Assembly (NCBI GenBank): GCA_002633005.1
Contig: NMRA01000016.1
Span: 734,628-798,627 of the forward strand
DNA length: 64,000 nt
Source of the DNA: Phoronis australis
Lineage: Eukaryota; Animalia; Phoronida
Direction: 5' to 3'
Positions 16,710 to 46,664 of the stretch are shown here, one piece after another. The position numbers and the translations under genes are program-made. How positions within the stretch are numbered: position 1 is the first letter of the stretch; each line of letters starts with the position of its first letter. The notes beneath the pieces are model-generated. The model saw only the letters and a program-made list of their open reading frames with translations. It was not told the DNA's origin and ran no database searches.

Positions 16710-19700
16710 CTAACGTTAACAATCTTTTTTATCAACCGCGAATGACTTACATCGTAATGGTGGACGGATATATTTAAACCCATAAGATGGCAGCCATACA
16801 TGTACTAGAGTGTCGGATCACGTGTCTCCGTTACTTTTGAAAAGCACACAGAAATTACACTAATGATCAAACTTCCACACGCTCGTTACGGATGCGTTTT
16901 GGTCTTCACGTCACAATAAACTAAATGCCAAAGTTCTAATATGCTGCTGATACACCCCGGAATACACCTGACTTGATCTAATATTTCTACATGAAATCGA
17001 CCTTCACATTATTTTTGTCATTTTCCGTTCAACTTTTGTGCGAATTCAAGATATGTGTTTATCATTCTGTACTCTTAATACTTTATGGTTCATGCAAATG
17101 ATTTTCTAGTCCAAATCCGCGCTTGGTGACCCCTAGGTTCGAGTAAAAACTCTAGAGTTTGAATTCACTCGCGTTTTAAACCTCAGTGATTGGTTAAACA
17201 GTTATGCACGAAAACCATTATGTACTTCATCACAGAAAAATAGACATTCTTCTGGAGTTCGTACAAAAGAAGAACAGAAAATGCAAGAAAAATCGAGTTC
17301 GATCTCTAATAAACAATTCAAATCCCGGGATTTGATTAGACCCGTAGAACGTATAGAGAAAAAGGTTCGAAAATGAGGATCATAAGGATTTGCACTGTAC
17401 GTTTTTCAGGGTCCCGGTTCCTTCCCTGTGGTCGGCTCCTTTTTCTCCGCAAATCGCCAATGTCTCCGTCCCAAAAGGACTGGTATGAACCGTGACGTGT
17501 GTAGAACTGAATAAATTCTAGCTCCAGATAGTGTAGGGCATCACGATACTAAAAATATATCTTTTGTTCTCTGCGTTTCCTTCAGCTCGTTATATTTTTT
17601 ACTCAAATAAAACATAGTATTTGCGTTCGCACAGACTGATCACTGATTAAAATAAAATAAGGTATCCCCATCGGACGTGACAGTACGCCTTCAAAATGTC
17701 ACTTTAAGGGCTTAAGCGATTTTTTCCTTCGAAAGTTGCTGTCGCGCGCCCTAAATTCTACAAATGACTAAATANGTGACGTGTGTAGAACTGAATAAAT
17801 TCTAGCTCCAGATAGTGTAGGGCATCACGATACTAAAAATATATCTTTTGTTCTCTGCGTTTCCTTCAGCTCGTTATATTTTTTACTCAAATAAAACATA
17901 GTATTTGCGTTCGCACAGACTGATCACTGATTAAAATAAAATAAGGTATCCCCATCGGACGTGACATTACGCCTTCAAAATGTCACTTTAAGGGCTTAAG
18001 CGATTTTTTCCTTCGAAAGTTGCTGTCGCGCGCCCTAAATTCTACAAATGACTAAATAGTCTCCATCATGAGAGGGCAGTTGTATTTGGTTTAAGATTGA
18101 CAACCTTCTGACCGCCACTTCATCATATTTCGTGTTTTTTTTTGTAGACCGGCTGACGAAAGGATAAGCGGTCTGTACAGTACATGCACCTTCTATAAAC
18201 AAACCGTTTACTTATTTAATAGTTTATTTCATGTAAACATCACACAAAATCGAAAGTTCAGCAGAACGGAACAAAACAACAATTGATGAACACCGGTTCA
18301 AGTGAACACTCATTGCACGTCGACACCGCAAAGACACTTTCATCTCCTATGGGATTCGCTTGCATATTACATTACTCAAGACGGTCATTTTACGACCAAA
18401 CGAGTATTGATTATCTCTGCCGCGTACGACCGGAGAGCCAACAGCATCTTAATACACTTAGTTTTTGAGGCCTCATCTTCAAGGCAGTTGATGTCTTGGA
18501 GATTTGCAACGACTGTCTGCGCACCATGATGGCTGTCGTGTACATGTATATACTTTTAAACATCATGTTTGCCATTTTAGTTGAAAGCCAACAGCCAATT
18601 ACCATCGGTAAGTTCTGTGGATAAAATCAAATTTTGTCAGCGGTTGCTATTTAAGTCAGACAAAATTTCTTTTGCATGCAGATGATATCGAAACGAAAAA
18701 AGTATATCCATTTTAGGCAAATTGTTTGCAGAGTGCGGTACGTGGGCTCTTCCGATTCTTCAAGTTCGGAATTTTGCAACACTCTTCAACTGTTTTGAAA
18801 GCCCGATGGTCATTCGCTCTCTTAACCTTAATGTAACCAAACTGGTACTAACAATGTGTTTTAAAAATTGCTCTACTGCTGTTACGTATTATGTATTATA
18901 TCATTCTGATACTTGTAGAAAGTTGCATGAACATCAGTTGGCGTAGTGTGAACGTGAGTGTTATAATATTGACACTCTCGAGGTTATTAGCCACAGTTTT
19001 TAAACTGTCTAAAATATTGCCACTAATTACCCGTTTAATTCTCTCGAGCTAAGTAAGTTCTACCTTAAGTGAGCTGAACGCCAACCCCGAATTGTAATGC
19101 ACCCGAAACAGCATGATTATAGACTCTTGGGTTTCTCCATAAAAAGGCCCTGACTTTTAACCCGTTGAAACGAGAAATATTCGGTAGTCATGCACTTTTT
19201 TGACAACAATGGTCGACAATGTTTTTGGCTGCTGGGACCATAGAGTTCACACAACTACTTGGGAGCCATGCGCTCCAAAAAAGGGAAACGACAAGTTTAC
19301 CTTTTCAGCAACTCAGAGTCAAATTATACTAGACAAAAGATATCATAGAAACATTTTGTATATTAGTCCTGCAAGTTTTGTGATGTTGAGTGTTATTCGA
19401 CTTCTAGTGGTCACTTTATTGGTGCACCAACGTAAATTAAAAGGTTAAATGAAACTGCATTCGCCACTATTTATTTGCCAACATTGAAATCTTAATCGAA
19501 GCAGATTGGTGTTCAAAAACAATACCACACTAATCCAATTTTGAATTGTTGCCGAATGAGTCGGCAACTCGAGTCACACTCAATGCGAACACTTGTGTGC
19601 AATTTTCGAAATCACATTTTAGAGTTGGCCAACTCAGATACACTTCGAAGTTTTCTTGAGTCGGTGATGGTTTCGATGTTTTTGCTAAAACAGAACTGAA

Positions 19701-21112: not shown

Positions 21113-24100
21113 CCACCACACCCAGGAGTTCCTGTCCCCAGGTACGTATCTCTTCTTCCTCAAAACGACCTCCTAATCCTGTTTGAAATTCGCCACACAC
21201 ACTCTCTCTCTTCCTCTGTCTCGTTCACGATGCGAATTATACGGAATATGGTGTCCCCAGGGTTGATGTTGTTAGTTGACCTCCAATCGAAATTGAATAA
21301 AAAACATCAACCATGGCATCCTAGTAATTATTCAATATTGATTAAGCTTGGCTGAGGATTATTCACCATCTACGATAAGTATGGCCTGAACTTTAGCATT
21401 GCTCATGACGCCTCCTACACAGTTTATTTGTTCGGTTGGCCTCCTTCGTTTTAAGAATAATTATTTGCCTCAAGACAAATGTACATCTTCTCCATGACGT
21501 CAAGTTCAATTTGACACGTTCGGCGGACTTCAAGCGGGGCCGGTTTCGTTTGTTTTTACAAATGCTTTGTTGTTCTGTCTATTCAAAAGTCCACAACAAT
21601 CCACAACTACTCAGTCTGGTTTACAAGGAATAACTGAAGTCACTCATCTCACCAATTTTGAGGACACGGGTTTGTTTTGATCTGCAGTTATGAAACTTTT
21701 GATATTTCTTAAGGTTATTAGGCGGAGGCATACATGCAATTGTACACATGTACGCCACATTTGATTCAGGGCATGACCTCTTGTTTTACGACTGAACAAA
21801 CTGTGCAAAATACAATAAACGCGTCTAACCTTTCCTCGAATTCTAGTGCCCGGCGAGCTAGTGTCCACGCGCGCAGTTCCAGTTTGTGAAAGAACAGATC
21901 GTGCAGGTTGGACACTGGAAGGTTTTCTCGAATGATAAGCATAGATGCTTTCACTTTCNTACGTATCTCTTCTTCCTCAAAACGACCTCCTAATCCTGTT
22001 TGAAATTCGCCACACACACTCTCTCTCTTCCTCTGTCTCGTTCACGATGCGAATTATACGGAATATGGTGTCCCCAGGGTTGATGTTGTTAGTTGACCTC
22101 CAATCGAAATTGAATAAAAAACATCAACCATGGCATCCTAGTAATTATTCAATATTGATTAAGCTTGGCTGAGGATTATTCACCATCTACGATAAGTATG
22201 GCCTGAACTTTAGCATTGCTCATGACGCCCCCTACACAGTTTATTTGTTCGATTGGCCTCCTTCGTTTTAAGAATAATTATTTGCCTCAAGGCAAATGTA
22301 CATCTTCTCCATGACGTCAAGTTCAATTTGACACGTTCGGCGGACTTCAAGCGGGGCCGGTTTCGTTTGTTTTTACAAATGCTTAGTTGTTCTGTCTATT
22401 CAAAAGTCCACAACAATCCACAACTACTCAGTCTGGTTTACAAGGAATAACTAAAGTCACTCATCTCACCAATTTTGAGGACACGGGTTTGTTTTGATCT
22501 GCAGTTATGAAAGTTTTGATATTTCTTAAGGTTATTAGGCGGAGGCATACATGCAATTGTACACATGTACGCCACATTTGATTCAGGGCATGACCTCTTG
22601 TTTTACGACTGAACAAACTGTGCAAAATACAATAAACGCGTCTAACTTTTCCTCGAATTCTAGTGCCCGGCGAGCTAGTGTCCACGCGCGCAGTTCCAGT
22701 TTGGGAAAGAACAGATCGTGCAGGTTGGACACTGGAAGGTTTTCTCGAATGATAAGCATAGATGCTTTCACTTTCTGAATGCATCGCCAGTGACATGGAA
22801 TTTATTTCAGGTGGAATCGGTTGACCTGTCTTCGAATCTACATCCCGTCCGCCAAACGTGTGTGAGCTTAGGGTAACAGGTTACCTTCTTTAACAATGAT
22901 CAAGTTTCCTAAATATCGAGTGAATGTATTAATAACAAACCCATAAAACTATATTTCTGAAATTCTCGATGACCAAAAAGTCGCATTATGCATATGAAAG
23001 AAATAACCAGTCGTTAGTATTCATGTGGCTGCGTCTTTTCTAATTTTTTATGAAGATCGATGTTATGTTCGCAAACATGAGATTATACTTCTCTATTCTG
23101 TTAGCTACCAAACGTATCTCTGGTATTCTCTTTTCAAGCAGTTTATCCCGAGAACTCAGTTGTCAAATTTGAAAATCAACATTTCTTATTTCTTGATAGT
23201 CGATTTCTCTGGCCCAAATCCCTTAAAACAAAATCTCATGGACGCTTTTGTGGCTAATGGAATAAAGAAACAGAATTTACAAGCTCCACACATAACTTTA
23301 ATGTCAGGGATCTGTTTATCTTCTAGAAAAATCAGTCACGTGATTGCCATTCTAGGTATTCCTTCTCAGTACTTGATGAGATTTCGATCATTTGGGGATG
23401 TTTTAAAAACATGAGTTTTATCGGTGTATTAATATTCAAAACTTATGGACGATATCCGGCACTTGATAACAAAGGTTACCAATGGCCTTCAAACATAGGT
23501 GGAGGTTGGGACCTAATACGTGCGTTTTTTCGTAGTACACATGTGGGCGCGTGTGCGCACTCACACCTGCATTGTGAGTGCTCACAAGCGGGCACGCGCT
23601 TGAGCGTTTTTCCAGGGAACATTTTTCTTACGGAGGTAATTATAACTGAGGTTGGAAATTGATCAATGGAGAATCGATTGGATAATGGAACGATAATAGT
23701 CGTTAAAAAGCAAAGTTGTGAACTGCCACGACTCGCAAATCGCCCAGGCGTCTAAGCCTTTGTGCAAATGAAGGTTTAACTAAGTATTTAATATGAGAGC
23801 GTCACAGTCTAATAGAAATTCATACAGTTACTAGTAATCATGATTATATTCTCCGATACTTTTGCATTGCTTCAGAGATTTAAATATTTTTCAAAAATCG
23901 TTGTATGGAGTGCAAGACTAAACTTCTGACCTTTAAGTCACGTTTTATGAAACAAACGCCTGAAATAATGTGAAAAAAAATCTGACAAACATGTTGAAAA
24001 GATGGGTTAAAAATTGTGTTAGGCTTAAACTTGCAACAATGGAACGCGCTAGAATGGGGTACAGACATTGATAGAAAGAAAATGTACATGTAGAGATAAC

Positions 24101-27423: not shown

Positions 27424-27764
27424 TAGAAAATACTTCGCTCGGCGAACGATAGGTGTCGCTATAGGACTTCCTTTCGCTGCTCGCTTCAACCCAGGATTGT
27501 GCTGTAGAACTCTTTTATTGGTAAATAAGACTATTTTAAGCCGTATTTCACATAGTAGAACTTTATCGTATCATTAGGCTAAGTCATGCTTTTGTGTATT
27601 TACAGATCCTCTTTATTCTAATAAAGGCAATCTTTGAAATAACTACATGTTTATTTATGAAGAGGACCAATAAAAGAGTTCTACAGCACAATCGCGGGTT
27701 GAAGCGAGTAGCGGATGGAAGTCTTATAGCGACACCTATCGTTCGCCGAGCGAAGTATTCTCTA
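27424..27764. mobile_element. 341-bp MITE with ~100-bp TIRs and perfect 5-bp TSD
   Basis: 27424-27523 is the near-perfect reverse complement of 27667-27764; ends TAGA...TCTA; TCCCC on both sides. Confidence 0.9.
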
Positions 27765-28422: not shown

Positions 28423-31400
28423 GTAAGAAAATATTTCTGTACACTTTATTTTCTTCTTACCACTTATCACAATACTCATGTCGTCGCTGACCAAGCGGGT
28501 TTGTTTCAGTCTTCCAAGTATCTGCTGTCGTAAGGGATGTGTCTAACTATGCTGAAATGTTCGTTAGGGGCGCATTCTGAGCTTGCCTACGGAAATTATC
28601 ACAGTCAGCGAATCACAAGTGTTACGAGGGCACATGATTAGTATTGGCATAATTTTGCAATGGAGCTTACGTAATTGTCTCGCAGCATACACACAAATTA
28701 ACACATTTTGGCCGCAATGCTGCAACTTTCTAATTCATAATTTCACAACACATGTTTTTATAACCATTTTCCAGTTTGTATGATGGCCGAACAGAAAGTT
28801 GTCGTTATCTTCGGTTCAGTGCATCCTTTAACGCAGACAACAATGGAGTCTTATTCCCGGACCATGGGCATCCCTTACATATCTCACAGCCACACGGACG
28901 TAACCACGGGTCGCAACAACGGTTTTCAAATCTACATGAGTCCTGTATACGAGCATGCCGTAATCGATGTAATCAAGCAGCTGGGTTGGAAGCATACATA
29001 TTTCATGTATGACAGTTTCGCAGGTAAATTATACATGTCGTCATCACACACCAGTGCAGGTGATGGCCAAGTGGTACCCGCGATACGGTGCTCCGGTCGC
29101 TATTAAGCATTTGAAACCTCCATAAAACACGACGACAGTGAAACCAGTACCAGAACAATGCACAAAACAAGAGTTGTTAGAAGGACAGGTGCCGTATATT
29201 GAACAAAGGACAAACGCCAGAGAGACCTTTTTAAAACAATTGAAGAATTGTTGTCTTTCAGCAGTATACACATTGCTTTCCATACTGTTCCTCGATGTTT
29301 TGACACAATAACCATTACCATCATGCCTTCAAGTTCAGGCTGAGGTTAAAACTGCATGGTGCGGTGGCCATAGCCTGTCAGCAACGGCGTATTCGCCCAA
29401 CCAAGCGTTGACACAATTAGATATTAATTGTCCCCTCAAACTTCGAACACCATGTAAGAACTTCGTCGATTATGCTGCAAATTGCCATATAAAGTATGTG
29501 CTGAAATGATTGCAACACAAAACTTACATGCATCGCTCCAGGCCTTCACCGAGTTCAACAACTGTATAGCAGTCTGGAACGAGCGGACACGCCGGCGTCT
29601 TCATTCGTCAACATAGAACTGCTGAAGGTATCCGGGCCTGACGACGCTTTGAAGAAACTTTCCAGACTTCATCAGCAGGACCCCAAACGTCTGCGCCGAC
29701 TGCTGGTGGATATGTCGCTTAAAGACACGCAGAAACTCATCACCAAGCTGGTAAGTCAGCCTCCAGGGATACCTTATATGGAGATATGGTTGGAAAGCGA
29801 CGCCAATTTTGGAGGCGATTTTGCCTCCAATTTATAAATCACGATTGTACTGTCCACATTCAGGTGTCATTTTGGATGAGGATCGTTCCTATCTCGATTG
29901 TCGTCTCGGGTGCAAAATTTTCAATGTATGGTTCCCGGCAGGTATACCAAATACAAGAAATAGCACAGCGATTAACGGAAGTGGTACGGATAGTGGAGAC
30001 TTGGATAGGGTACTTCGCCATTTAGCGTAGTATCAGGTTCCCATTTTTTCAGTGGCCCTGCTTTTGCATTGACCAGTTCCCCGGGCGATGGTAATTTCGC
30101 AAAATCTTGAATTTTACACTAGAACACCAACATTTTTGTACAATATTTTAATCTGTATTAGTAATGTTAAATTTTTGTGTTGTTGGAATAGTATTATTAA
30201 AATCTATTGCTCTATTTACACTGACTTCTTATCTATTTACACTGTCACGACGTTTCGGTCGGTCTATTCTCCGGCCATCGTCAGGTATTCCTGCGTTCTT
30301 AGAAGAACGAGCACAGATATGTGGTACATTCATCGTAGTGTGCTTTTTGAGTCCGTGGTGTAGTGGTTAAGGTGTTGGACTCAAATTATCTGTAGTTTCA
30401 GAAGTCGTGGGTTCAAATCCTGCCTTGGACAAAAAATCACACCAAGATGAGTGTACCACATATCCGTGCTCGTTCTCTTCTAAGAACGCAGGAACAGCTG
30501 ACGATGGTCGGAGAATAGACCGACCGAAACTTCTTGACAGTGTAAATGGACAAGAGGTCGGTGTAAATTGACGAACAGATTTTTGAATAATAGTAACACG
30601 CCACCGCCTCAGAGCGGTTTTAGAAAGTCATTGTTGAAATAGGTTTTTGCACAGGAATTCTGAAGCAAATTTGACTTTATCCATCGAGCTCTAGTGAGTT
30701 TATGACAAATACTCAGCCACAATATTTCTTCTTGCAGTACGACCTGAGTCCTATGATGCGCAGTAAGTTCCACACGTTCGTCTCTGGCATTGGATTCAAC
30801 GAGATGAACATAAGCGAGTTTTACATCAAACAAACCAGTCTTAACCTAACAGGAATGCGGATAGTTAATGAAAGAGAGCCTGAAGTTGAACGCTTCTTTG
30901 GGCTGTGGAAGAGAGGAAAAGAACGAGACATCGCCATCTCGGTTGGTAAAGTAACATGTACATGCGATCTATACATAAAACGTTACATATTCTAGTCGAC
31001 AACGTGACCAGGCCAACTCATTGAGTTGGACAATTTCATTACGTCGGGAAAAAGAATCGTAGAGGATCGGCTCTGTGTTCTTCAACTTGATCAGACCATT
31101 GCCGGAGTTTTTTGTTTGTAAGTTGTTTCACTACGCATATTCTTCCAAAATATTTTCCCTCACACTGTCTGATTAGTCCGACACGACTCGGCTTGTGACG
31201 CACAATCAGCTGAGTTGAACATAGACAAATGGTGTACGTAAGTTTCATAAATTGTCAGTGTGCCTGCGGCGTTACAACGCGAGGTAAGCAAAATACAAAA
31301 TTGAGATTAACCTGTGGATACTCATGACGTTTCACTAGTCAGTGTCATCTTAATTACATGCATTTGCAGTTACTATAGCAAACAGAGATTAGCATGCAAG

Positions 31401-34400
31401 TAGGACCAAAACAAAGGTTGGAAAGTATTATACACGAACGATGTACATGTATATTGTACCGACACCAAAACGTACAGTAGGGCAATTCAGAAGCTTCGTT
31501 GAACTGCAGCTGAAGTGATGCAAACACCGCGTTTTGTCGTCAAACACTAACCATTGAAACTAAATATTAATTAATACCATACCGACGTGAGGGCACGTCA
31601 ATGCAACGTTGAAACGACATTTGTAATACCAGCTAAACTTTGTCAAAGTTGGTTGAAAGGGGTCTTCAGCGTAAATCTCCGAGAGATTCTCGGTGATTCG
31701 GTGATGACATTCAAAAATAGTGTGTGTTGTTTTGTAACCGTTAGCTGTGCATGTCGACGCAATGGACTACTTTCTTTTTCAGTACAAAGCTGCTCTCATA
31801 AAAGACTCCGTGTCACTGTTTGACAAAATTCTCTACGACTCCGGAAGCACATTCAAGTCACACCTGTTAAAAAAGCCCACGTCTTGCCTTGAGAATGTCA
31901 CAGCGTGGCAATACGGAAGAGACCTCGCAAGGAGAATTAAGAAGGTACTATGTAGGCTATTTGTTCTTGATTTCACTGGAAACCCTGAAAAAAATCTTCT
32001 ACCTGTGGACAAAGATGAGTGACGTTTATATGTACATGTATTACCTTATCGGGAAGTCTGGGTTTTCAACCGTAGTCCTACAAAAGTTAAATTTAATTCA
32101 GTAAAAGTAAATATTTTCAGAATGAGAAAAACTGTTGACTTTATACCAATTCACGACGGTTAATTGGGTCACGTGAATATGTCTTGTAAGTAAATTTAGG
32201 CAGGAAAAAGAGGTGCATCCAAAGTAAAATAACGGTATAAATCATACGAACAAAATTAATTTTCTTTTGATATAAAGTGTAGACCATAAAATCTTAAAAA
32301 CGCGTTTCTTATCGTTTGTTTTCGTTTTACGCACCTTTTGATTTACAGTTAAAAAAGTCCTTGAAGTCCTAATTTTATATACCCTCGTACAAAACAGGAA
32401 CGAGCATAAAGTATATATGTAGTAATTGAACGCTCCATTTGAATCAGGCCAGCCGTGTCTAATATTTTGAAGTGAGCCAAATTTGGTTATTGTCTCGAGG
32501 TTACATGCAACCATAAAGTATGTAGAAAATTAAATCAATTACTGGACTTACGGATTGAGTTGGCTACGTTGCGTCCTCCTTTCGAGGACTTCGACAGGCC
32601 ACTGAGGTGTCACGTGACTCGTCATGTGGTCCACAGCACAGTTTGCGCGGGATACTCTTTAGTGCCCTATCCCACGTCCTTGGCAACAGAAACCTCAGGC
32701 CCCCTTGTCTGTTTAGGCTAAGATTCTCAACTCTTTCATAAATAGCTTCCTTGACACCTCTCCTGAGCCAATTTTCCTCTCTATCCAGAATTTTGACATC
32801 ATCCAGGGAGAAAGAGTGGTCTGTGGCAGCTATATGACTAAAAACCGCAGAATCATAGCAGTCCCCTTACTAGGTCTACGATGTTGATTGATACGACTTT
32901 TCAACTTTTCAGGGCTTATTTGGTTTCCCCAATGTATACTTTCCCACACCCTAGTTCCGAGCATGAAATGCCATACACCTTTTTTCTCTTTCGTGGTCTT
33001 ATCTTTCACATTCATTAGCTGACTCCTTATATTGTACTAATTGGTTGGAACGCAACAGAAATATCGTGGCCCTTCATATGAGATTTTACCTGGTCTGAAA
33101 TCTATGGCACAAAAGGTAATGTTATCCTAACGTCTCCCCTGTTGTCAGGCTGCGTGTTCTGAGGCATGACTCCGCCATGGTCTACCTTGTGGAATGACCA
33201 CTCAGGATAGCCACATCTCTTTAATACTGTTCTGTTGTAATTCAATTCAGCATCAATGCCCTCCTCCTCAGAGCCCACGGTCCCAGCTTTCTATGGGTTG
33301 CCCAAAATACATAAACCAGAACCTATACTGGTTCGGTCGATCGTAAGCTGTATTGGTTCTGTCACTTACGCTAAATTTATTTCGAGAATCATCTCGCCCC
33401 TGCTTGGCTTGTCTCGACAACATGTAAAGAACACTCAGTCATTCATTAAGTACATAGGAAACCTAGTGATGGAAGAAGATGAGAGCATTACTGCCTATGA
33501 TGTGAGTACTTTGTTTACGTGTGTACCCCCGATGACGCTTTGACGGTTGCGAGAGAACACCTACCGCAGGATAATTCCCAGAGTGATAGAACAACCCTAT
33601 GGATAGACACTATTTGCCAGCTACTGGAGCTAACACTTAAGTCCACTTACTTCTCTTTTGAAGAGAACGTCTACATCCAGTCCAATGGATGTGCCATAGG
33701 CTCTCCTGTTTCCCCGATTGTGGTGAACTTATACATGGAGGACTTTGAGAGGAAGGCGTTAGCATCCTATGATGGAGTTCCACATAGACTCTGACTGAGA
33801 TATGTAGATGACACGTTTGCAGTGCTAAAAATTCTAAAAAGACAGGGTTCTTCGAACACATTAATCAATGTGACACCAATATCAAGTTTACTCAAAAAGA
33901 ATCTAGAGACAACTCTTTACCGTTCCTGGATTGTTTAGTGACTATTGTAGACAGGCGTATTAAGACCAACATTTATACGAGGCCCACTTACACGGACTAC
34001 TATCTTCCGTTTGACTCCATTCACCCTTTGATGCACGCTGGGCGGGATTAGAACGTTAGACTAGCGTGCAAAAACCATCCCCAACACGGAGGAATACATT
34101 GATGATGAATTGGATTACAACAGAACACTATTAAAGAGATGTGGCTATCCTGAGTGGTCATTCCACAAGGCAGACCATTGCGGAGTCAGGCCTCATAACA
34201 CGCAGCCTGACAACAGGGGAGACATCAGGATAACATTACCTTTTGTGCCAGGGATTTAAATCAGACCAGGTTAAATCTCATATGAGAGGCCACGATATTT
34301 TTTTGCGTTCCAACCAATTAGCACCATCAGGAGTCAGCTCATGAATGAGAAAGATAAGACCACGAAAGAGCAAAAAGCAAATTTGGTGTAGTGGCATTTC

Positions 34401-37400
34401 ATGCTCGGAACCAAGGTGTGGGAAAGTATACATTGGGGTAACCAAACAAGCCCTGAAAAGTCGTATCAATCAACAATGTAGACCAAGTTATGGGGACTGC
34501 TGTGATTCTGATGTTTTTAGTCATATAGCTGCCACAGACCACTCTTTCTCCCTGGATGATGTCAAAATTCTGGATAGAGAGGAGAGGTGTCAAGGAAGCT
34601 ATTTATGAAAGAGTTGAGAATCCTAGCCTAAACAGACAAGGGGATGACCTGAGGTTTCTGTTGCCAAGGACGTAGGATAGGGCACTAAAGAGTGTCCCTC
34701 GTTAAGTGTGCTGTGGATCACATGGCGAGTCACGTGACACCGTCACATCGTAGCCAACTCAATCCGTAAGTCCAGTAATTGATTTAATTTTCTACATATT
34801 ATTACTCAATTGGATGACTGGAAGTATTCATCGCGCAACCTTAAAGTATTACGCATATAAACTTGACAATGCCCGAGAAACAACACATATTTAAGCGACC
34901 GTGGAAGTTTGTTCCAGAAAGTGATAGTAATTGCACGCCACTGACTTTTTGCCGAAAACAAGGCAGCTGTGGGAAAAGACTACCCACGAAGGACTATCCG
35001 TGACATAGAGAGTGCGAGTTTTTAGTTGATCCCTCCCTTTAACTTGGAAGGTTGACGCCAGTGCTAGGTGACAGAACGAGGAATGGTTGAAATCATCAAA
35101 ACAGGGTTTATTTTCCTTTTAACAAGCACTGTGTTTCGTTTCGAGACCGAATGTCTCACGTTTGCATTGTCACCAGTCGTTTGTTTTATGAATACTCACA
35201 CCGACGTCTCATTTCAGGCGACATTCAGGAACAACCAGTACTATCGTGGACTGACGGGCTGGGTACAGTTTGATGATGCCGGTTATCGTAGAGGGTTTTC
35301 CCTTGATGTTATTGAGAAGGCACCCAATCCCAGTACTGGCCTAGCAATAGTAAGTATAACAACAATATCTGTGTTATGTGACGACTTTGACGCAGTAACG
35401 GGACAGAACGAGGATTGGTTTACTCACAATAGGGTTTAATTTCCTCCTAATTGCTTTTCGAAAGGAGTCCATAATTCTACGTGCTCGTCAAATAAATTTA
35501 ATTGACAGATACGCTAAAGATACAAATTCGCAAAAGAATCTGAGTAAAACCTGTAAACAGAACAAAAGAGATCGACATTCGGGCTAAGACTCATAGGACT
35601 TGATACATCATCTTTGCACGCGTCTCTGCCAAACCTACATTCAGAAATGCTCAAATTCTTGACAAGGTTTCAGGGCCACTTTACATTTACTTCACTGCTT
35701 ATGTTGATGCTCAAACAGTAGTGTTATTTGAATTTTATTCAAGGTCGCAAAATGGCAATGCCAAGGGACGTCTTACAGCGAGAACCAAAGAAGGGACCCA
35801 TCTAGTTGTTACAGTAACATACGACCTCCGCAAAATTACAGGCCGGGAACCAGCGAGCATCTTGAGAACAAGGAACCGTTGAAAGTCACAACGCACATAG
35901 TAAGATGATTTCTCAACTTACGTTCCAGGTCAAGACGAAAGCGTATCTATCTTTTGTAGTGTGGCGTTCATCCCAATTAGATCACGCCGTGACGACATGC
36001 AACGTTTCCGCAATGACATACAGTGCTTCTAACCCGTTTCCGTCGAAAATAACTTTTGATTTAAACCACGTGACGGAACAAGGACAGTCCACATGCACTC
36101 GCCTTCTGTTAAAAAACGTATCGCAATCAAGTTGGTCTCAGCCCCTGCGGTTCTTTAGAATTAGTTTCTGGGATTACGGAGAAACGGATAAATGGCTACT
36201 TCTTGAGAAGAGGCTCAATAATACGGACATTTTATACGTTCAAAGCATAATGACCCCTGTTACCTGGAAACGCTCTAGTTAGTCAACGTGAAAATTGACG
36301 AAAATCTATTTTTAAGATTATTGTATTTTGCCATCAGTTTAAGGCAGCAAGTGCGAAAAACTCTTCCCCGTAAACAATTTTCAAACCGGAAGAACCTTGT
36401 AATAGATTTTTTAAGGAAAATGACAGAAAAAAGCGGAAAACCAAAGTTGCCTTCCACGGACTATTTATAGGATTTCCAGGTTACGTGAACGTGCCGAGTA
36501 ATATACAATGTACTATCTAGCGTTTGGACACACAACCAGCCTATACGGCTAACAAAGTGACTGGTCTAGACAACTTATCGAGTCTGGTATCGAGCAATAA
36601 CGATTTTCTGATTTTACCAAGCCTGGAAATGGCTTGCAAACTTTGGTACCAGTTGTAATATAATGAACGATCTTAATCAAAAGTTATTCTTGACAGAAGG
36701 TCAGTTCATATGTAGCACCTTCTACGCACCGACGTCGACGGCAACGGTAGTCAGGGTGGAAGACGGCTGAAAAGTGTGCCCACGCGTACACTTTACGAGT
36801 ATATTGCCGTTTCGTATAATGTCTATCCTAGACAAAGATATCTTGTTCATAATTACGTGTATCTACGTGAACAATTGTCAACTTTCGTTACTAACTAGGG
36901 TGACATTCTGTAATATTTTCAATTGTTCTGCAATTTAATTTGCTACTAGGGCGAAAGGGGCTTCTAAACATGCTTGAGTAAATAAGTGATATGGCAAACG
37001 GACTTGAACACGTTTAGCTTTCATATACGCAGTACGGTTACGACCAATCGAATAGGCATGACTGCAGGAGCAAAATAAACATTTGCAATCACTGTTGAAA
37101 TAGCTAGAGGATCGTCGGTTTAGACCATGGTATGTTCTGCAAAAAATTACCAGCTGCGGCGTTGAAATTTACTTAGACCATTTTGACATATTCCTTTTTT
37201 TAAAGTTTCATCAATGTAATCGTATAATGTAGTTGAAGTTGAAACGTGAATTAATTTTCAGGGAGAGCCGTATATGTCTTACAAAAAGAAGAGTGTCGAT
37301 GGAAAACCATTGCATGGCAACGACCAATTCGAAGGTTTCTGCAAGGACCTAGCTGTGGCGTTGTTTAACTATATGGGCTTGACCTTTCTGATCAGGCCGG

Positions 37401-40400
37401 TGAAAGATAAGAACTACGGTCTTCCTGATGAAAACGGGACCTGGGATGGTATGGTTGGAGAACTATTAAGAGGGGTAGGCGCACGATCTCAATCGTTGAC
37501 CATTTAAAATATGTTACTAAAGTTCAGTCGAAAGTTGAGCTGTGGGTAATTGAAAGAGCGAATACATTTTCATGTAACTGAACTAAAGAGCACAAGCATT
37601 AACACATGTTCTAATAAGTTAAAGCCAGTTTCAACGAACACTGCATTATTTCTCACATTTTGTTTTTCAAAGGAAGCTCACTTAGCGATTGCTGACTTGT
37701 CCATCACGTCGCTGCGAGAGGATGCCATTTATTTCTCAAAACCTTTCATGAGCCTCGGCATCAGCATCATGATAAAGAAACCGGCGCCTAAACCACCAAA
37801 CGAATTTTCTTTCCTCACGCCGCTAGCTTACGAAGTAAGTTATAAACCACCCAGTCTGACTGGCTGTTTGTCGGAAATAAGCTCAGTCGAATAAACACGT
37901 AGGTCAAGTAGATCTAGATATGAAATATTTTCCTGAACCAACAGCACATATTTGGTGAGAATATCCATGATTGAACGTAAATAGACCTCCTGTCTCGCAA
38001 TTTATGTGCCAAAGCATTGACATGTAGGCGGTAAGGAAGTTATCCTTGAAGAGCACTTTAACGCCAACGGCATTAACTTCTCAACAATTTTCAATAATCA
38101 ATTTTCAAAAATGCGTTGTCTCATACTAACTTAGCTTTTTTTAATGTGTCTAATATTCTTCGGCACAGACGAACGCCATTGTAAATGGTTGGTCTAACTG
38201 CAGGTTTGGATGTGTATCATTTTCGCCTACCTGGGAGTAAGCGTGGTGCTCTTCTTAGTCAGTCGCTTCAGTACTGACGAGTGGTCTATAGACGACTCCA
38301 AAGAATGCAAGAGTTGCAAGAACGTCATGTCCATATGGAATTGTCTCTGGTTCTCTCTAGGGGCCTTCATGCAACAAGGCTGTGAAATATGTCCGAAGTA
38401 AGACTCTTTCTACACATGACGCGTGCAAAAATGATAATAATTGATAGAAGATGGACGGCGAAGNACATATTTGGTGAGAATATCCATGATTGAACGTAAA
38501 TAGACCTTCTATCTCGCAATTTATGTGCCAAAGCATTGACATGTAGGCGGTAAGGAAGTTATCCTTGAAGAGCACTTTAACGCCAACGGCATTAACTTCT
38601 CAACAATTTTCACTAATCAGTTTTCAAAAATGCGTTGTCTCATACTAACTTAGCTTTTTTAATGTGTCTAATATTCTTCGGCACAGACGAACGCCATTGT
38701 AAATGGTTGGTCTAACTGCAGGTTTGGATGTGTATCATTTTCGCCTACCTGGGAGTAAGCGTGGTGCTCTTCTTAGTCAGTCGCTTCAGTACTGACGAGT
38801 GGTCTATAGACGACTCCAAAGAATGCAAGAGTTGCAAGAACGTCATGTCCATATGGAATTGTCTCTGGTTCTCTCTAGGGGCCTTCATGCAACAAGGCTG
38901 TGAAATATGTCCGAAGTAAGACTCTTTCTACACATGACGCGTGCAAAAATGATAATAATTGATAGAAGATGGACGGCGAAGAAGCTCTGACTCGTAGTTT
39001 GTACGTCTGTGTTGTTGAGCAACCATTGTTCAGTTAGATGAACTTGTAGTTCAGGCTACCAAAACACGAGTTAAAGCGGATTTTAGCCCTCCCTCACAGT
39101 AATAAGATAGAGAAACGTTGCTCAATATAGGATATGTGCTATTATCATTTGGTAAAGCTATGAAGAACCACGAAACCAGCACAGTGAAACAACAGAATCC
39201 GGTATTAGACCATTCTACTCCTTCTTTCAGATCAACTCCTGGTCGTATCGTTAGCTGTGTATGGTGGCTCTTCACGTTGATCCTGATCTCATCTTATACG
39301 GCCAACTTGGCTGCCTTTCTGACCGTCTCCAGAATGAGCTCACCCATCCAGTCAGCGGCGGATCTGGCTGCGCAAACAGTCATCAAGTACGGCTGCATAG
39401 ATTCAGGCACCACCAAAGACTTTTTTAGAGTAAGTCCAATATTCTACTTGCGCAAGCCAACGGTCTGCTTTAATATTGCATTGGACGTTTTAATTCCAAC
39501 ACATGTTGGTCTATAATGAACCTCATACGATGAATGTACCAGGAGGTCTGTCTTCCTACTGTGTACTTCACGTTCGTACGAAATGATTACGGGGCGTGAG
39601 AGAGGAAATACGGGTTGTGACCGGCGAGTTGTGTTCGTGAGAAAAAAAATTGTGTACACGCCTGAATGGTTTTAAAATAATGGGAAGGTTACTAATTATC
39701 CGATACGATTTTTCTTTAGACATTTGCTTTTGCCATGGAAGTTAACTCACCGAGCGTGATTTTCAACCGATAAAAAGTCTACTTGGTCTGTGAACATGAG
39801 ATCCGTTTGGAAACAACAAAAGCTCAACTGAAACTTGACGAAAGGTTTAGGTGTACAGCGCGCTAGTCGAGGTAACTTGTTTGTCAAACTTTACAGCGAT
39901 TTCCACAGCTGTAGGTTAAACTTTCGTTTTCAAAAGATTGGACTTTATCAACGCCTCGTTTCAGAAATCTAAAGTAGCTACTTACGAAAGAATGTGGTCG
40001 TTCATGAGCACTAACGACGATGTATTGATGAAGAGCAATAAACAGGGCATAGAAAAAGTGCGGGAATCGAACGGAAAATATGCCTTCCTAATCGACTCCA
40101 CCACCAACGACTACGTGAGCAACAGAAAGCCGTGTGACACAATGCAGGTCGGAAGTTACCTTAACAGTCAAGGATTCGGTATAGGGATGCCACTCGACTC
40201 CAAGTACAAGTAAGGCTTGTCGTTTTTCATCAATAAACCCATGTCATTCTTTTCAGCTGAAATGAAACACACCCCTCTTGCGTCAAAAACTCAAACATGG
40301 TGCTCGTCATTGACCACCATGACAGTACCACACACTTATTGTCGTTTTCTAAGAACGTTGTAACACCTGAAGATTACAAGAGAAATTAGCTACTGTCAAT

Positions 40401-43120
40401 ATAAATAGGTGGTAGAAATAAACCAACAGATTTTATTGGATGATGTCACCACATCACCACCACAATGCTGTCTTAGGTGTAGAAGACAATTTTAGAAATC
40501 TTTTTGCATTCTTTAATTTACTGAGGATACAACATATTCGTCCTCAGGGAAAGGGTGACCCTTGGAGTTCTGGAAATGAGGGAGCAAGGAAACCTGACAG
40601 AAATGCAAGACTACTGGTGGAAAGGAGACGATATTTGTAAGGATGACCATAAGGTAACTAGATGAATAGTAAAGGCGTTCACTAAGAAAGCCGTCCCGGA
40701 TTACAAGGCGATAGAACTCTCCTTTGCCCTGAGGATAAGAAAGCGCGTGGCCTCGTTTCAGAAATCAGGCACATTTTGTATCTCTCATTGATATCGGGAA
40801 GGCGAAGAGATTCAAATCAGGCATCCATGAGTATTTGTCCAGTGAATCAAACTATCTCACGTTGGAGTTGCACCAACCCACAGTTCACCAGTACTACTTC
40901 TTTGGGAATGGGAGGACGAATAGAGTATTGCAACCGAGAAAAATTTGAACAAAATCAGACAACAACAAACAACATGCGAAACTCTAGTGGCATGAAAACG
41001 ACACAGCAAATGTGCCTGGCGGATGTTTACAGCACTGTGGGGGAAATATAGCGAGGTTTGAATGTTCCTGTGTAATCTGGGAAGGTCCTATTGGTAACGA
41101 AAAAACGCCTATGTCTGTGAGGAGCATGGCGATGACTTATTGGTAAGCCTTACCAATAAGTCATCGCTATAAGTAAGCAAACAAGAGCAGCACAGTAATA
41201 GTAACACAGTATAGTGAATCTTTGAGACAGCAAACTTCAGTGGAGGACACACAGGTATTACAAGTTGCCAACCGAAGTATTTAGGGGAAGTGGTAAATTT
41301 AAGGTAAGCAACAGAAAAGTATTGCATAAGTAAGAGTAAAAAGTACGACACTGATGACACTCAGAGTACTTTGAAAGCATGCGCACAATTCTTCAAGTAA
41401 CGCATTGTGAAAGTGCTAATTTACGTCAAGAAATATGGATTTCGTGTTCATACTTTCAGGAAGTAAAAAGCTTGGCTCTGAGTCTTCCGAAGATTGCCGG
41501 CATTTTTTACATCTTAATTGGAGGCTTAGGGATAGCGCTAACCACCGCTGCTCTGGAAATTATGTTCTACAGAAAGCTTGAGGCTGTTCGCACGGTAAGG
41601 TCAGAGGTTACCATCGTTCAAGGATCAAATTAGGCTATGGTGGGAATATTATCTCACAGGGATGTTTTGTCTTGGAAGGCAATTTGTTGCTATCAAACTT
41701 TCAAACAAGCTACACCCGTGTCGCCACCTGTCTCATTGATGCATAACCACTGTAAAGTGGATGATATGCCATCAATGATTAAAAAATCACGAGGTAAACC
41801 GTCGTTAGTATCAGTAAACAACACAACAAGCCAATAACAATATAATTTAATTAGAGAGATCACCACACATGTTGCACAGGGTCAGAAATGTGCGGTTGTA
41901 CATAATTGAATTCGACGAGCTGTACACTAACAATACGCCTAGTCGACGGCATACATGACAGGAAGTCGACCAATTGCTCTGCAACCTCTGATTTCAGTCA
42001 TCGGAGACGGACGGCAAAAGTGACAATGTCGTGGCAGCAAACAGACTGGACGCGTGCAGAAGACGACTGCCTTCGTCGTCAGTGCCGGCAAGTGATCTTG
42101 CTTAACTTCTTTAGAACAGATTAATAATGCTTCGACTAATCTTAAACGCGAAGAACAGACATTATTTCAAATTTGATTCTAGCTGCAATAAGTTCCTGAA
42201 TTCTGTTAAGGGTTCAATTTCAGAAATGATTTGATTTCAAAGCAGTTTTCTTCATAGTCATTCGACATGGTTAAAAATCACCAAACCCTGAACGGGAACT
42301 TGTACGCTAATTCCTTATCTCTGTTATTGCTTGGTCAAATTAGTAAGAAACGCAAAATATAGCGACGACGTGGATATGACGTACGTTGAAAATTGCCAAA
42401 TGTTTTAAAAGCGAAATTTGTGTTGAAAACGATACGCCGTAAATTATTCCGCCTACAATGTCGAAATGGTTATCACACTTAATGGGGTAATAAACTAACG
42501 CCCTCTATCCAAAAGGTAACGTTGGATTTGGGCCACTCACGGTCATAACATTCGATGATTCCGTTTATTCAATATATACCATTCTGAAGGCAAAAGTTCA
42601 CATTACTCAGTCAGCCAAACTTGCTCTGGGAATGGTTTATAGTGAATAAATCGAAATGTCGGATCAACATGTCTTTGTTTACTTACCGCGCTAATTTTAA
42701 AGTTCGTGCTCATGCTTTGGCCCAAAACAAATGTGATTATTCGTCTCGTGTTGTTCATTATTCAAATTATAGGCTTGAGAAGTGACACTGCATTAATATT
42801 TCGGACAAGGTCCACGAGGTTTGCTTGTCACGATGGATGGCGCTTCGATCGCTGCATACGTGACCAGTATGGCGAACAGAGGAGTTCTACGCGCTTTATT
42901 TGTTACCAATCTCAGTTTAAGCAAAGGTTAAGAACACGATGACGTTGCTTTGAAAAAGCAAACACGCTTGTGAAAAAAAATCATATTGACACCATAACAT
43001 GGTTAAAACGTCTTTAACTTTACCGCGATTCTCTTGCAGTATTCCTACGCAATGCCAACAGGGCAGTTGATCGGATTTGAACCATACATCGTTGCTGAGC
43101 CTGGTCAAACACAAGTATGA
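28282..43120 (+). CDS. GRIA: Ionotropic glutamate receptor, AMPA-type (GluA-like); 16 coding exons found, signal-peptide exon missing
   Basis: Phase-consistent exons: 28282-28422, 28775-29023, 29542-29750, 30738-30941, 31783-31944, 35218-35349, 35744-35899, 37262-37474, 37673-37834, 38204-38397 (or the duplicate 38722-38915), 39231-39429, 39965-40209, 40548-40653, 41460-41594, 41998-42087, 43040-43120. Hallmarks: [70 protein letters not shown]. Confidence 0.95.
28775..29023 (+). CDS. GRIA: GluA-like ATD exon ([14 protein letters not shown]...MYDSFAG)
   Basis: ttttccag| and G|gtaaat; corresponds to FCSQ..GV.AIFG and Y.YDS. Confidence 0.9.
29542..29750 (+). CDS. GRIA: GluA-like ATD exon (GLHRVQQLY...RRLLVDM)
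   Basis: ctccag| and CTG|gtaagt. Confidence 0.85.
30246..30287 (-). ncRNA. Minimal type I hammerhead ribozyme motif
   Basis: Minus strand: tac CTGACGA t ggccgg agaataga ccgacc GAAAC GTC gtg; loop-less palindromic helix III (ACGU). The plus-arm copy (30498-30533) has a perfect stem II (ggtcgg/ccgacc) but TTC in place of GTC. Confidence 0.6.
30349..30431 (+). pseudogene. tRNA-derived head (Leu/Ser-like, long variable region), not a functional tRNA
   Basis: A box TGGTGTAGTGG near 30357, B box GGTTCAAATCC at 30410-30420; acceptor and anticodon stems pair poorly. Confidence 0.75.
30738..30941 (+). CDS. GRIA: GluA-like ATD exon (...NLTGMRIVN...)
   Basis: ttcttgcag|; donor TCG|gttggt chosen to keep phase 0. 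Confidence 0.8.
31783..31944 (+). CDS. GRIA: GluA-like ATD exon ([10 protein letters not shown]...WQYG)
   Basis: tttttcag| and AAG|gtacta. Confidence 0.85.
32522..34834 (+). mobile_element. 5'-truncated Penelope-like element (RT + GIY-YIG, Poseidon-like) with inverted 3' copy at its 5' end
   Basis: [43 protein letters not shown] at 33801-33812, C..C.KVYIG.TKQ.LKSR and [18 protein letters not shown]. 32522-33267 is the reverse complement of ~34088-34797. Flanks gcaaccataaagtat and gcaaccttaaagtat (14/15 TSD). Stops and frameshifts present. Confidence 0.95.
32561..32602 (-). ncRNA. Decayed Penelope pLTR hammerhead ribozyme
   Basis: tggc CTGtCGA a gtcctc gaaag gaggac GcAAC GTA gcca: stems I and II intact, two core substitutions; deleted in the sense copy near 34740. 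Confidence 0.6.
35218..35349 (+). CDS. GRIA: GluA-like ATD exon ([14 protein letters not shown])
   Basis: atttcag| and ATA|gtaagt; GL.G.i.FD..G.R motif. Confidence 0.9.
35744..35899 (+). CDS. GRIA: GluA-like ATD-LBD linker exon (VAKW...[13 protein letters not shown])
   Basis: ttcaag| and ATA|gtaag; open 52 codons; below the ORF-track cutoff. Confidence 0.8.
37262..37474 (+). CDS. GRIA: GluA-like S1 exon (GEPYM...[11 protein letters not shown])
   Basis: ttttcag| and GGG|gtaggc. Confidence 0.95.
37673..37834 (+). CDS. GRIA: GluA-like S1/pre-M1 exon
   Basis: tcaaag| and GAA|gtaagt; [29 protein letters not shown]. Confidence 0.95.
38204..38397 (+). CDS. GRIA: GluA-like M1-M2 (pore, Q/R site) exon, copy 1
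   Basis: ctgcag| and AA|gtaag; [23 protein letters not shown]...FMQQGC. Confidence 0.9.
38722..38915 (+). CDS. GRIA: GluA-like M1-M2 exon, copy 2 (probable allelic/assembly duplicate)
   Basis: Same translation as copy 1, inside a 518/517-bp repeat joined by a single N at 38464. Confidence 0.5.
39231..39429 (+). CDS. GRIA: GluA-like M3/S2 exon (SYTANLAAF)
   Basis: ctttcag| and AGA|gtaagt. Confidence 0.95.
39965..40209 (+). CDS. GRIA: GluA-like S2 exon ([13 protein letters not shown]...PCDTM)
   Basis: gtttcag| and AA|gtaagg. Confidence 0.95.
40548..40653 (+). CDS. GRIA: GluA-like exon equivalent to vertebrate flip/flop ([14 protein letters not shown]...YWWKGDDIC)
   Basis: tcctcag| and AAG|gtaac; phase 2-0. 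Confidence 0.9.
41460..41594 (+). CDS. GRIA: GluA-like M4 exon
   Basis: ctttcag| and ACG|gtaagg; [19 protein letters not shown]. Confidence 0.95.
41998..42087 (+). CDS. GRIA: GluA-like cytoplasmic-tail exon with a GC donor
   Basis: atttcag|TCA, open frame, CCG|gcaagt; read-through stops at 42105. Confidence 0.55.
43040..43120 (+). CDS. GRIA: GluA-like terminal exon [26 protein letters not shown] (class I PDZ ligand)
   Basis: ttctcttgcag| acceptor, phase 0; resembles molluscan GluR tails as recalled (Y.Y....IGF.....T.V); AATAAA at 43494 and 44030. Confidence 0.7.
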   Translation, partial: YSYAMPTGQLIGFEPYIVAEPGQTQV

Positions 43121-44429
43121 CGTATTCCGTGTCCAAACGCAAATTTTGATTGGATCGCCGGATTTATGGAAGAGCCAGCGACCACATGAAGCTGTATGCA
43201 GGACGTTTGTGATGACAGTGATGCGCTTGAAACCCCGTGCAGTGTTATCTTTGAAGTCATTTTTTGGGATGGAAAACTATTGCATGATTTCCACGACGAG
43301 TTAGCGTTCCCAAGGGAAATCGTCGATTTCTTCAGGGAGAAGATTTATCACCGCCAACTTGATTAGTTTAAATTAGAAGTTAGCGACTTCGGCCTGACCC
43401 AGCTAGAATTGTGTGGGTTCTGACGACACCGTTGCATAGGCGGACCCAGGGAAGGGTCTCAAGGGACAGGATCCCTATGTAACCAAAGCGCCTAATAAAA
43501 ACCACGGGAAAATGGAAGATTTCTGTTTTTTATTTCTATAGACCGCTGGGTGCAGTAATCAGTACACTAGTTTTTATTATGATGGGGGGTTTTACTGATT
43601 GATACTGACACAGAATACTCGTCAGAGATCTACAATTGCAGTCATTCAAATTAGACCTTCCCCTTCGTAAAATGTTCGCCTTCGCACTATTAGGCCAACG
43701 ATTGTACTACCAACGACAAAACCAGGAATAATTTGCGTACTCATCATATAGAATAGATTATGTTCTGTTCTTAATATGGAGACGTTTTTCCTCACTCAAT
43801 GTCGATAAACAATTCCTGTCGACATTAACGAATTCCACATAATAATCTTTCTGTTTTAATTTAGTAAGTCCCAATTCGTAAAATTTAGTATCAGAGAAAC
43901 TTACATGACAGCAGTTTGAGAAACATCAGCTGCAGGGGCAAAAAGGCGAAGAACAGATTGGTAGAATTTTTTGTAATAATGATGATTTTGATCCTTTTGA
44001 CAATTTATACGAAACAGTTTGTTTTAAACAATAAAAAATGAAAACTAACCAAGTGTTATCAATTAATATTTCATTTCGTTTGAACGTATCCACCAATATT
44101 TTTGACAGTCTTGATACCTCACTCCTTTGTAATTAACCTTCCAGGGAACAACATGTATTTCAAATGTACATACACATACACAAACTTTTTGCATCCATAA
44201 TTTCCGTTCGTTTTACTGAAATGGACTGTTGACAACATTACGTGAGGGGAGGGTTATCATGCATTCAAGTATAAACCAGCAGTTAAATCAACCGTTGAAA
44301 CTTCAACTAGAACCTAACAAGGATTCTAGTTCTGTTGATGCTGGTCATCAGGAACTCAAGTATTATAGTCGAATCTTTTGCAAGTAGTTCTTTTTTAAAT
44401 ATGGGCAGAGTCCCAGAAATCGCTTGAGC

Positions 44430-44605
44430 ATTACATCTAGGTTCTCATTTACTCTCTTGCATACACTGGCCAGTAAGATCGAGTTCAGAGGAGTAGAAGA
44501 CACATTTTTGCAATGCTCGATTGTCAGCCCCTAAAGTCAGGTTTCGAACCCGGGTCCCCACACGGCCAGGAGACCGAGCTCAAACCACTAAGCCACAACG
44601 TCTCC
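44430..44605 (-). mobile_element. tRNA-derived SINE
   Basis: A box TGGCTTAGTGG (44595-44585), B box GGTTCGAAACC (44550-44540), body motif gagtaaatgagaacct resembling invertebrate SINE cores. Confidence 0.65.
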
Positions 44606-46664
44606 TCAAGCAAATAGTTGCCAATCAAGTGAATGGTACTGATCAAGACGAATGCATGTACTACTATAGGCGTCGCCTGTCTATTGAACCTTTAAAGCTG
44701 GGTTTCGCCCTGTTAGGCCGACTAAAAACGGGAATCAAATTAGGCATTTCCATTCATAAATCAGTCTCATAACAGGCTTCGTCTTGACGTGATTTCCATT
44801 ACCAAGAAGTCCATCAAAACCATCGACAACTCGAGAAAACACCGTCAGCACTGGTCAACTCTAAAATTGTAATGCAAAAATGGCAATATATGCATTACTT
44901 GTAACATGAATTGGCAATGAAAATAGAATCCTACCATGGTAAGGAATGTTTTATTAGAGTAAAAGGCCTAATTCGATTGTCATTCTTTAGTCATCTAAAC
45001 GGCTTTAAACAGCAGCTGGAGACCAAGTTCTGTTGGTAGAATAAATAATTTAACTTCCAAGTAAAGCATGGACCTGTGGTTCGACCACTATTCACGCATG
45101 CAATTAGCACATACGAGTTTGATCATCTACCAATGACAAATCCATAACAGACAAAGAAAATCCTTCAACCTATGTTCAAATGGTTAATTTCCTCATACAG
45201 CTAAACATTTCACACAGGTCACAGTACAACTGACTTTAAATACATGTACCTCAGAAAAGTACAACATAAACAACATTAAGTCACATAATTTAAGTTTATT
45301 AAAAAAATTCAATCTCAAAGAGAAAACCCAAGAAACAAGAAGTGTAACACATAAAAGCTTCAGCATTGGCAGTCCACAGTAAAGGTAGTACGACTGAGGA
45401 AAACCAACTACAATTCAGACAAAAAATCAAAACATAACGGTACTCGCCACTGAAAGCCACATGTCCCAGCAAGATAACAGGAAATTAGTTGTGTGGTTAT
45501 GATGAGCACAAACTATACCGTTTTCATTTATTATTTAATCTTTGTTTCTTTAAAAATATCAAATATTACTTTACTAAACAAAACTGGAGGGTCAAACGGA
45601 ATAATGTAGCTGAGCTTAACTGTTACATGTAAGTTTGAGTTGTTACATGTACACAGAAAAGACTTCAAATGAAGAAGAATCAATTATGCCAGGCACATTG
45701 TTGCCGTGCTTGAGTTTTGTAGAAATACAGGCTGGCTACAAATGTATTGCAAATAATGGATCAAAAGCAGTGTGCTGGCCTGCCGGGTCAGTAACCTGAA
45801 TATGAGACCACATCCACATAGAGCCAATACATGAAAGTTTACTTGTCCCGCGGCAAATCCACTAGCCCCGGTCCACTGGCCCCGGTCCACCGCCCCAGTG
45901 TGTATTTCGAATGCTGATCAAAAGTCCTACAAAGCACCAGACGATTCAGCAACTTTCCCAAATACTTGTGTGAAGTTTCATCCATCAGAAATAACAACCT
46001 CTTTCAGGTCAGCTCTCAATGTCTTGTATTTATCTTAAATATTTTTGCTACCGAGGGAAAGGACGAGTACCTGATCAGGGTCCTGGGTACAGATATTCTT
46101 CGTGTTTTAAGAGGTGGACCTTGAAGCACTGCAAGGATTTTTTCCACCTCGACTTCACAAGTTAGTTTCTGTGGTACTAAGAATAGTCCTCTCATTCCTT
46201 CTAATTACAGTTTCCACCATGTGATCAATCTCCTCTCAATTTTCTTGGGTCCTCCCACATAACTCTATAAAACACATGGAGTTTTTCTGAAAAAAAAATT
46301 GATAATAAAAATTGCATATTTGTCACACAATAATAATTGAACATAAAACAACGTTGAGAACATTGCACTATAAGTCGAAGTAAACAAGTACGGATATTTT
46401 AAGGTTTCAAAAATTATCACTTCTTAGAAATTACTTTATTCGTAGAATTTGTCTCGGGTAAGTGGAAGCATTTGTTAATGCCAATGAGGCTGAACTGGAA
46501 CACACACCACGTATAGAAGTTTTAAGTGAATGTTGAATTGTTGATGGCATTTGAGACTGAAATTAAGCGGAATTTACGACAGAAACAGTACTTCAACTGC
46601 ATAAAACCACGTTCTTATAAATCAGAGCATTGACTTCGTACAAGAAGGGATTATAATTATTCTC

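Follow-up and report, generated by a model that had tools for sequence, protein, structure and literature searches.

An intron of a plus-strand ionotropic glutamate receptor gene of Phoronis australis (Pfam ANF_receptor and Lig_chan on the flanking exons) carries a foldback sequence in which a tRNA-like segment stands beside a hammerhead ribozyme motif. It lies in the window analysed here, the whole stretch of 64,000 nucleotides from contig NMRA01000016.1. SINEs are familiar as LINE parasites, and in 2024 Pol III-headed parasites of LTR elements were reportedly described. A preliminary description of the locus had proposed a SINE mobilised by Penelope-like elements (PLEs), which raises the question of how this sequence was inserted and what kind of unit it represents.

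Anatomy of the insertion

The span 30192-30630 is a single insertion, made up of an inverted arm, a tRNA-derived head, a hammerhead body and a tail, and enclosed by a target-site duplication:

30180-30191, plus strand: target-site duplication, left copy, 12 bp, AT-rich, with one mismatch to the right copy
30192-30348, minus strand: inverted arm, 5'-truncated and head-to-head, without head and tail
30349-30431, plus strand: tRNA-derived head, present family-wide
30356-30366, plus strand: A box
30410-30420, plus strand: B box
30432-30596, plus strand: body, to the first fixed 3' end (about 30595-30597)
30597-30630, plus strand: optional tail of ~35 nt with a small hairpin, to the second fixed 3' end (30630-30632)
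30631-30642, plus strand: target-site duplication, right copy, 12 bp, pairing with 30180-30191

The arm was delimited by self-comparison and by a sharp edge in contig depth at 30192. As first described, it is an inverted copy of the body placed directly 5' of the head: 30192-30348 is complementary to 30432-30591 at 88-89%, in two blocks. The right end of the element had been placed at 30625; read ends and the 12-bp duplication move it to 30630. The score of this duplication was equalled by none of 300 random zone pairs, and its length is a measurement on one copy (30192-30630) only.

The tRNA-derived origin of the head and its A and B boxes were confirmed, with a weak match. The head aligned end to end with the Rfam tRNA model at 23.4 bits (gathering score 29, E 0.23), and each box has one mismatch to the consensus printed in the available text of PMC8969392. 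A 4-bp hairpin occupies the position of the variable arm (30389-30402). The head is not a functional tRNA, and ARAGORN called no tRNA in it.

Family copies and the mode of insertion

Other copies were studied through public contigs of one sample (X1-X3; X1-X4 are one sample, which may be the one the window came from) that were aligned to the locus, using the best-supported of the records at least 80% alike. Summed contig depth was 33-38 on the flanks and reached the thousands and tens of thousands at 30192-30630. Relative to the flank it was ~480 on the head, ~650 on the tail and ~1,500 on the 3' body, figures that are good to an order of magnitude and are not copy numbers. At that resolution the copies of the family number at least in the hundreds, and their 3' part is over-represented. 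The tail, at first called unique, occurs family-wide in these contigs, and the window itself holds one further copy:

40313-40476, plus strand: old, diverged, headless copy of body and tail, still with its start codon and the initial half of the hammerhead core

The proposal that many copies have the head fused to the body was upheld, as depth was continuous across the junction and seven of the eight longest X1 pieces listed cross from head into body. These observations bear on the alternative that a tRNA fragment was captured just once, between two solo pseudo-LTRs (pLTRs). Such an event would account for the head being exactly the unduplicated spacer at this locus, and capture between pLTRs is reported in the available text of PMC3846280. 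However, the head is itself high-copy and runs into the body in contigs from other loci, and we regard a one-off capture as hardly credible.

Inverted arms of variable length, as had been anticipated, were found, with head-to-head junctions at many different points. In one table, 7 of the 15 joints listed (57 in all) connected the left arm with the main copy, at 30347, 30348, 30358, 30370, 30395, 30542 and 30607. In a second, 8 of the 15 listed (20 in all) were strand switches, in eight different places; the two tables overlap, many contigs being counted in both. One inverted arm starts within the head (30360/30388), and in one contig the tail lies on the inverted arm. The 5' junctions cluster at the start of the head (30347-30360), and the best 6 of several hundred rows per run had no shared DNA upstream of it.

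At the 3' side, two end points recur. The ends behind 30583 in 21 (X1) and 24 (X3) contigs share ~14 letters, to about 30596, and then diverge, and at 30630-30632 there are 16-19 contig ends per position with unrelated flanks beyond. Past 30630 the contig ends agree at only 0.40-0.46 (best 6 rows per run of several hundred). A LINE-type 3' end, that is, an A-rich or simple-repeat tail without inverted arms, was not found in the family.

Variable head-to-head joints combined with two fixed 3' ends are the insertion signature of PLEs, which the available texts of PMC8557442, PMC3846280 and PMC8969392 describe. Moreover, the distance of ~35 nt between the two 3' ends matches both the optional PLE tail of 30-40 bp (PMC8557442 and PMC3846280, as far as their accessible text goes) and the two internal reverse transcription start sites of Poseidon_Ac (PMC11167929). 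The duplications given for Adineta in the available text of PMC3846280 are 8-10 bp, compared with 12 bp here. Taken by itself, this copy resembles a foldback with ~150-bp inverted repeats, and an ordinary MITE with a spacer that is tRNA-like by chance would look the same. In the family, however, arm length and junction vary, including the arm that starts inside the head, the tail is on one side only and depth is 3'-biased. Barring assembly artefacts, the variable junctions therefore refute the MITE reading and leave it a minute residual probability. PLE-type mobilisation is, in our view, highly probable.

The hammerhead motif

A motif scan placed a hammerhead in each copy of the body:

30246-30287, minus strand: minimal type I hammerhead with intact core, predicted cut after 30249
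30495-30536, plus strand: main-copy hammerhead motif, with decay of helices III and I that is confined to this copy

The left-arm motif has an extra nucleotide before helix II, a helix II with 5 of 6 bp paired, a loop-less palindromic helix III and a 3-bp helix I. It retains the full core, from 30284 to 30249 on the minus strand, as had been reported, and this intact core is antisense to the host transcript. Shuffling the arm 20,000 times never produced the combination of core, 5 of 6 bp in helix II and 3 bp in helix I, and the window contains no other instance of it. No Rfam hammerhead model matched at the element. An Rfam match to mir-181 there was rejected, as it reflects only the foldback hairpin.

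In the right arm the core is decayed after GAAAC. These defects are peculiar to this copy, since 94-97% of contig depth differs from the right arm at 30497, 30531 and 30534; conservation of the core across the family thus held, most copies being intact and the right-arm changes forming a minority of contig depth. In X1, 25 places vary at 15% or more, of which 22 are listed and the other three are changes from G, one of them at 30351. No A, C or T of the core therefore varies at that level in X1, and one unlisted G>T may fall on a core G. In the A and B boxes, likewise, no A, C or T position had a variant at 15% or more in X1 contigs. With regard to stem II, the perfect pairing first described is present in the right arm but is peculiar to it, as 93% of contig depth and the left arm have a C.A mismatch. 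Compensatory changes, suggested earlier as a source of support, were not seen among the contig-depth variants, in which individual copy sequences are not separated.

This motif resembles the metazoan PLE minimal hammerheads of PMC4209133, whose available text describes the same extra nucleotide before helix II, a G-C first pair, a loop-less palindromic helix III and a short helix I, and also notes opposite-strand pairs 100-700 bp apart. It differs in the C.A mismatch of most copies and in that no covariation was shown, and we treat it as a predicted ribozyme. The same text reports that minimal hammerheads are inactive as monomers, and the loop-less hammerhead of this element is predicted to be inactive as a monomer too. 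Because cleavage would part the promoter from the 3' ends, uncut RNA should be the source of full-length copies. Insertion without a need for cleavage is described in PMC11167929.

A type I hammerhead with palindromic helix III, in a unit within the size range of retrozymes, could also point to a non-LTR retrozyme or a tandem unit like Sm-alpha, in which dimeric hammerheads cut arrays and the monomers circularise and re-insert; Sm-alpha joins a tRNA-derived promoter to a hammerhead (PMC6765202 and PMC2770079, in their accessible parts). Tandem arrays had been listed among the expected signs. However, there is no array at the locus, the ends are fixed rather than permuted and lie away from the cut site, and none of the joints listed (15 of 57 and 15 of 20) was head-to-tail, in short-read contigs, which can hide arrays. 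This explanation appears improbable.

A reading frame through the hammerhead

The body also contains the beginning of an open reading frame:

30447-30630, plus strand: start codon and frame of ~61 codons through the hammerhead to the 3' end, with two frameshifts and a stop in this copy

The ATG at 30447 lies 15 nt past the head; both arms have it, as does the old copy at 40.3 kb. In this copy the frame is interrupted by stops and a 2-nt insertion, which are minority states (against 96% at 30231, 97% at 30569 and at least 69% at 30474), and once these changes are set aside the frame is open throughout. A 60-codon open frame in one of three frames would occur by chance in ~7% of cases. Several contig records show whole-codon changes, such as a -3 deletion (30301) and a +1/+2 insertion pair (30447-30448). 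In-frame polymorphisms at 15% or more in X1 comprise two synonymous changes and one that is not, too few to show selection.

A protein search with the 34 codons of the left arm yielded four matches among 1.84 billion representatives (E 5e-7 to 4e-5), in a type of search that, through gene calling, favours copies that kept the frame. All four begin at the same Met, with 74-79% identity. Each is an unnamed ENA prediction, 62-135 aa long; their C-termini are unrelated, and no Pfam family was recognised in them. For P0121 and P0124 the similarity extends to the end of the tail, for P0122 and P0123 it ceases near the first 3' end, and all diverge thereafter. Between P0121 and P0124 there are three indels, all of whole codons. 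It is likely, judging from these sequences, that the body is the start of a PLE gene, that is, a pLTR, because the frame runs through the ribozyme and the relatives share the Met and the two end points. Published pLTRs include the ORF start (PMC11167929; PMC3846280 in its available text).

Further searches did not extend the frame. A longer-protein search, which was a weak one, gave no match, the ESM Atlas no usable match, and locus searches with P0121 and P0124 nothing real, the one match being of low complexity (36%, in an actinomycete). When viral and metagenome contigs were scanned for the pattern, 1 and 4 matches resulted; none extends past the pattern, and they are put down to chance. 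A GIY-YIG PLE family sharing the 3' body, which the preliminary description had predicted, was not found in the protein and locus searches, nor was an RT/GIY-YIG ORF linked to the pLTR or a full-length parent.

Transcription

RNA data (X5-X8) came from samples other than the contig sample. From each of three RNA-seq samples with the same species label, 385-475 reads aligned to the family; they lie in both orientations, and 0-4 of them are 99% alike. There was no clear pile-up of starts or ends in the RNA reads, with one cluster, 6 of 11, at 30572. The A and B boxes would be used by Pol III, as their sequence suggests; T-runs occur at ~30580 and ~30618, short of the 3' end, and transcription by Pol III would have to continue through them. 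Pol III RNA is a poor mRNA.

In each of the RNA runs X5-X7, 24-34 reads had ~15 letters in common 5' of 30348. Two DNA contigs have 2-6 extra letters at the same place, one of them ending like the RNA leader. The shared letters may stem from a single expressed locus, or be a leader or the last part of an ORF lying upstream.

Origin of the element

If the body is the beginning of a PLE gene, the copies could be solo pLTRs that a PLE with a captured tRNA-type promoter has shed from its 5' end, and on balance we favour this view. Within PLE-type mobilisation it is more likely than a free-standing SINE. The full scenario, in which a PLE captured a tRNA promoter as its 5' end and, because its enzyme starts within the first few hundred bases, sheds units of promoter plus start sites that spread by themselves, has a probability of roughly one in three.

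Its steps can be outlined as follows. The RNA would begin at or just before the head, as the clustered 5' junctions suggest, and, given the boxes, would be made by Pol III. A PLE protein would bind the body, the counterpart of the opening codons of the ORF that encodes it, and nick AT-rich DNA with a stagger of ~12 nt; reverse transcription would then begin inside the RNA at one of the two sites ~35 nt apart. The two ends and the duplication are observed, and the enzyme is assigned by analogy with Poseidon_Ac (PMC11167929). Two truncated cDNAs, presumably, are then joined to give the head-to-head structure that is seen. If the monomer hammerhead is inactive as predicted, head and start sites would remain on one RNA. 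Short copies would keep both and could be amplified again in trans, like a SINE.

The alternative of a free-standing SINE, in which a tRNA head was fused once to a PLE pLTR or ORF start and then amplified from short Pol III masters in trans, is tentative. It accommodates all of the PLE signature equally well, and is also in line with the clustering of 5' junctions at the head start, the shortness of all four database relatives, the absence of a shared continuation at the top contig ends (the same best 6 rows per run) and the invariant box positions in X1. Non-autonomous PLE derivatives are known besides, namely MRC1 (PMC8557442) and retrozymes (bioRxiv 10.64898/2026.07.22.740005), according to the available text of each. 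On the other hand, the start codon, the open frame and whole-codon indels have been kept across relatives that are ~20-25% apart in protein. In addition, a parental pLTR lacking the head and having a different 5' end was not encountered, depth being continuous over the head/body junction. Thus, of the initial proposal, the PLE-mobilised part stands by virtue of the insertion signature, whereas the independence of the SINE is weakened by the conserved start codon and open frame. Shed pLTRs and a free SINE are not exclusive, since the shed unit holds both promoter and start sites.

If shedding from a PLE is correct, a SINE would have been born from the 5' end of its helper rather than by borrowing a LINE tail, which would be an undescribed route and possibly an explanation for elements of the Sm-alpha type. 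At ~280 bases and in hundreds of copies that share two fixed ends but differ in their head-to-head joints, the unit documents PLE priming in compact natural form and could serve directly as template in the existing in vitro PLE assay. With it, the origin of pLTR inversions and tails and the purpose of the minimal hammerhead become testable.

Relation to known elements

The closest structural likeness is to endonuclease-bearing PLEs with hammerhead pLTRs (Poseidon_Ac, PMC11167929; Adineta Pen2a, PMC3846280 in its available text; Penelope), which also show a head-to-head inverted truncated copy, an optional tail of 30-40 bp, a duplication of ~10 bp and a minimal hammerhead that overlaps the ORF start. 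The element differs from Poseidon_Ac, Pen2a and Penelope in that its 5' part is a tRNA-derived segment with A and B boxes, and no ORF-bearing copy was found here. The two PLE promoters described in the available text of PMC8557442 overlap an intron.

Sm-alpha and Sj-alpha of schistosomes share the order of a tRNA-derived Pol III-type head followed by a hammerhead, and a high copy number. In contrast, their hammerheads are canonical and in tandem, and the accessible parts of PMC6765202 and PMC2770079 mention neither PLE-type ends nor an ORF start. Non-LTR retrozymes of animals (PMC7229834; bioRxiv 10.64898/2026.07.22.740005) and MRC1 (PMC8557442) are, like this unit, short, non-coding, related to pLTRs and thought to use PLE enzymes. 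They are defined by tandem repeats, with no tRNA head reported in the available text of these sources, whereas the element consists of dispersed head-to-head insertions. The TRIMp3 elements Cassandra, Helenus and Ajax (PMC10886601, in its accessible text) have a Pol III promoter derived from a small RNA in the terminal repeat of a retroelement that does not depend on LINEs. These are LTR elements with duplications of 4-5 bp, and the present element would be their PLE counterpart. A tRNA-headed unit with PLE-type ends has not been reported in the literature covered, to which Repbase Reports and most subscription journals are external.

The neighboring PLE and other features of the window

A PLE is present 2 kb from the element:

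32522-34834, plus strand: decayed PLE with an inverted arm of ~750 nt, RT and GIY-YIG-like remnants and a tail of 36-39 nt

It has a duplication of 15 bp (32507-32521/34835-34849). Its RT piece scores under the Pfam cut-off, and no GIY-YIG family match was obtained. The layout is the same as that of the element, as had been stated, but the ribozyme type agrees only in part: the left-arm hammerhead departs from the core at two positions, and part of the right-arm hammerhead is deleted. As a partner this PLE was rejected, its best local match to the element being ~22 nt with no shared sequence beyond, in agreement with the earlier remark that it need not be the partner. In its terminal repeat (32522-32620, minus strand) an ATG again lies just 5' of the hammerhead. 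Its frame continues through the hammerhead in the register that the element has with respect to the core, and a splice-donor-like site lies past the hammerhead.

Two further tRNA-like heads with A and B boxes occur at 44270-44610 (minus strand) and 46665-46990 (plus strand). In both, 230-270 nt on, there is a common motif of ~35 nt with the first hammerhead heptamer (12-nt exact match) and a hairpin, and neither has a clean second hammerhead half. They are possibly decayed elements of the same design. Four other foldbacks without a clean hammerhead core (7971-8728, 27424-27764, 11841-12413 and 50058-50623) are probably ordinary MITEs. A multi-kilobase repeat with a 59-bp minisatellite is found twice, ~9 kb apart (47475-51000 and 57351-59340). 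Finally, adjacent near-identical duplications (97-100%) at 1793-2761, 17492-18060, 21143-22259 and 37943-38954 are possibly assembly artefacts from uncollapsed alleles.
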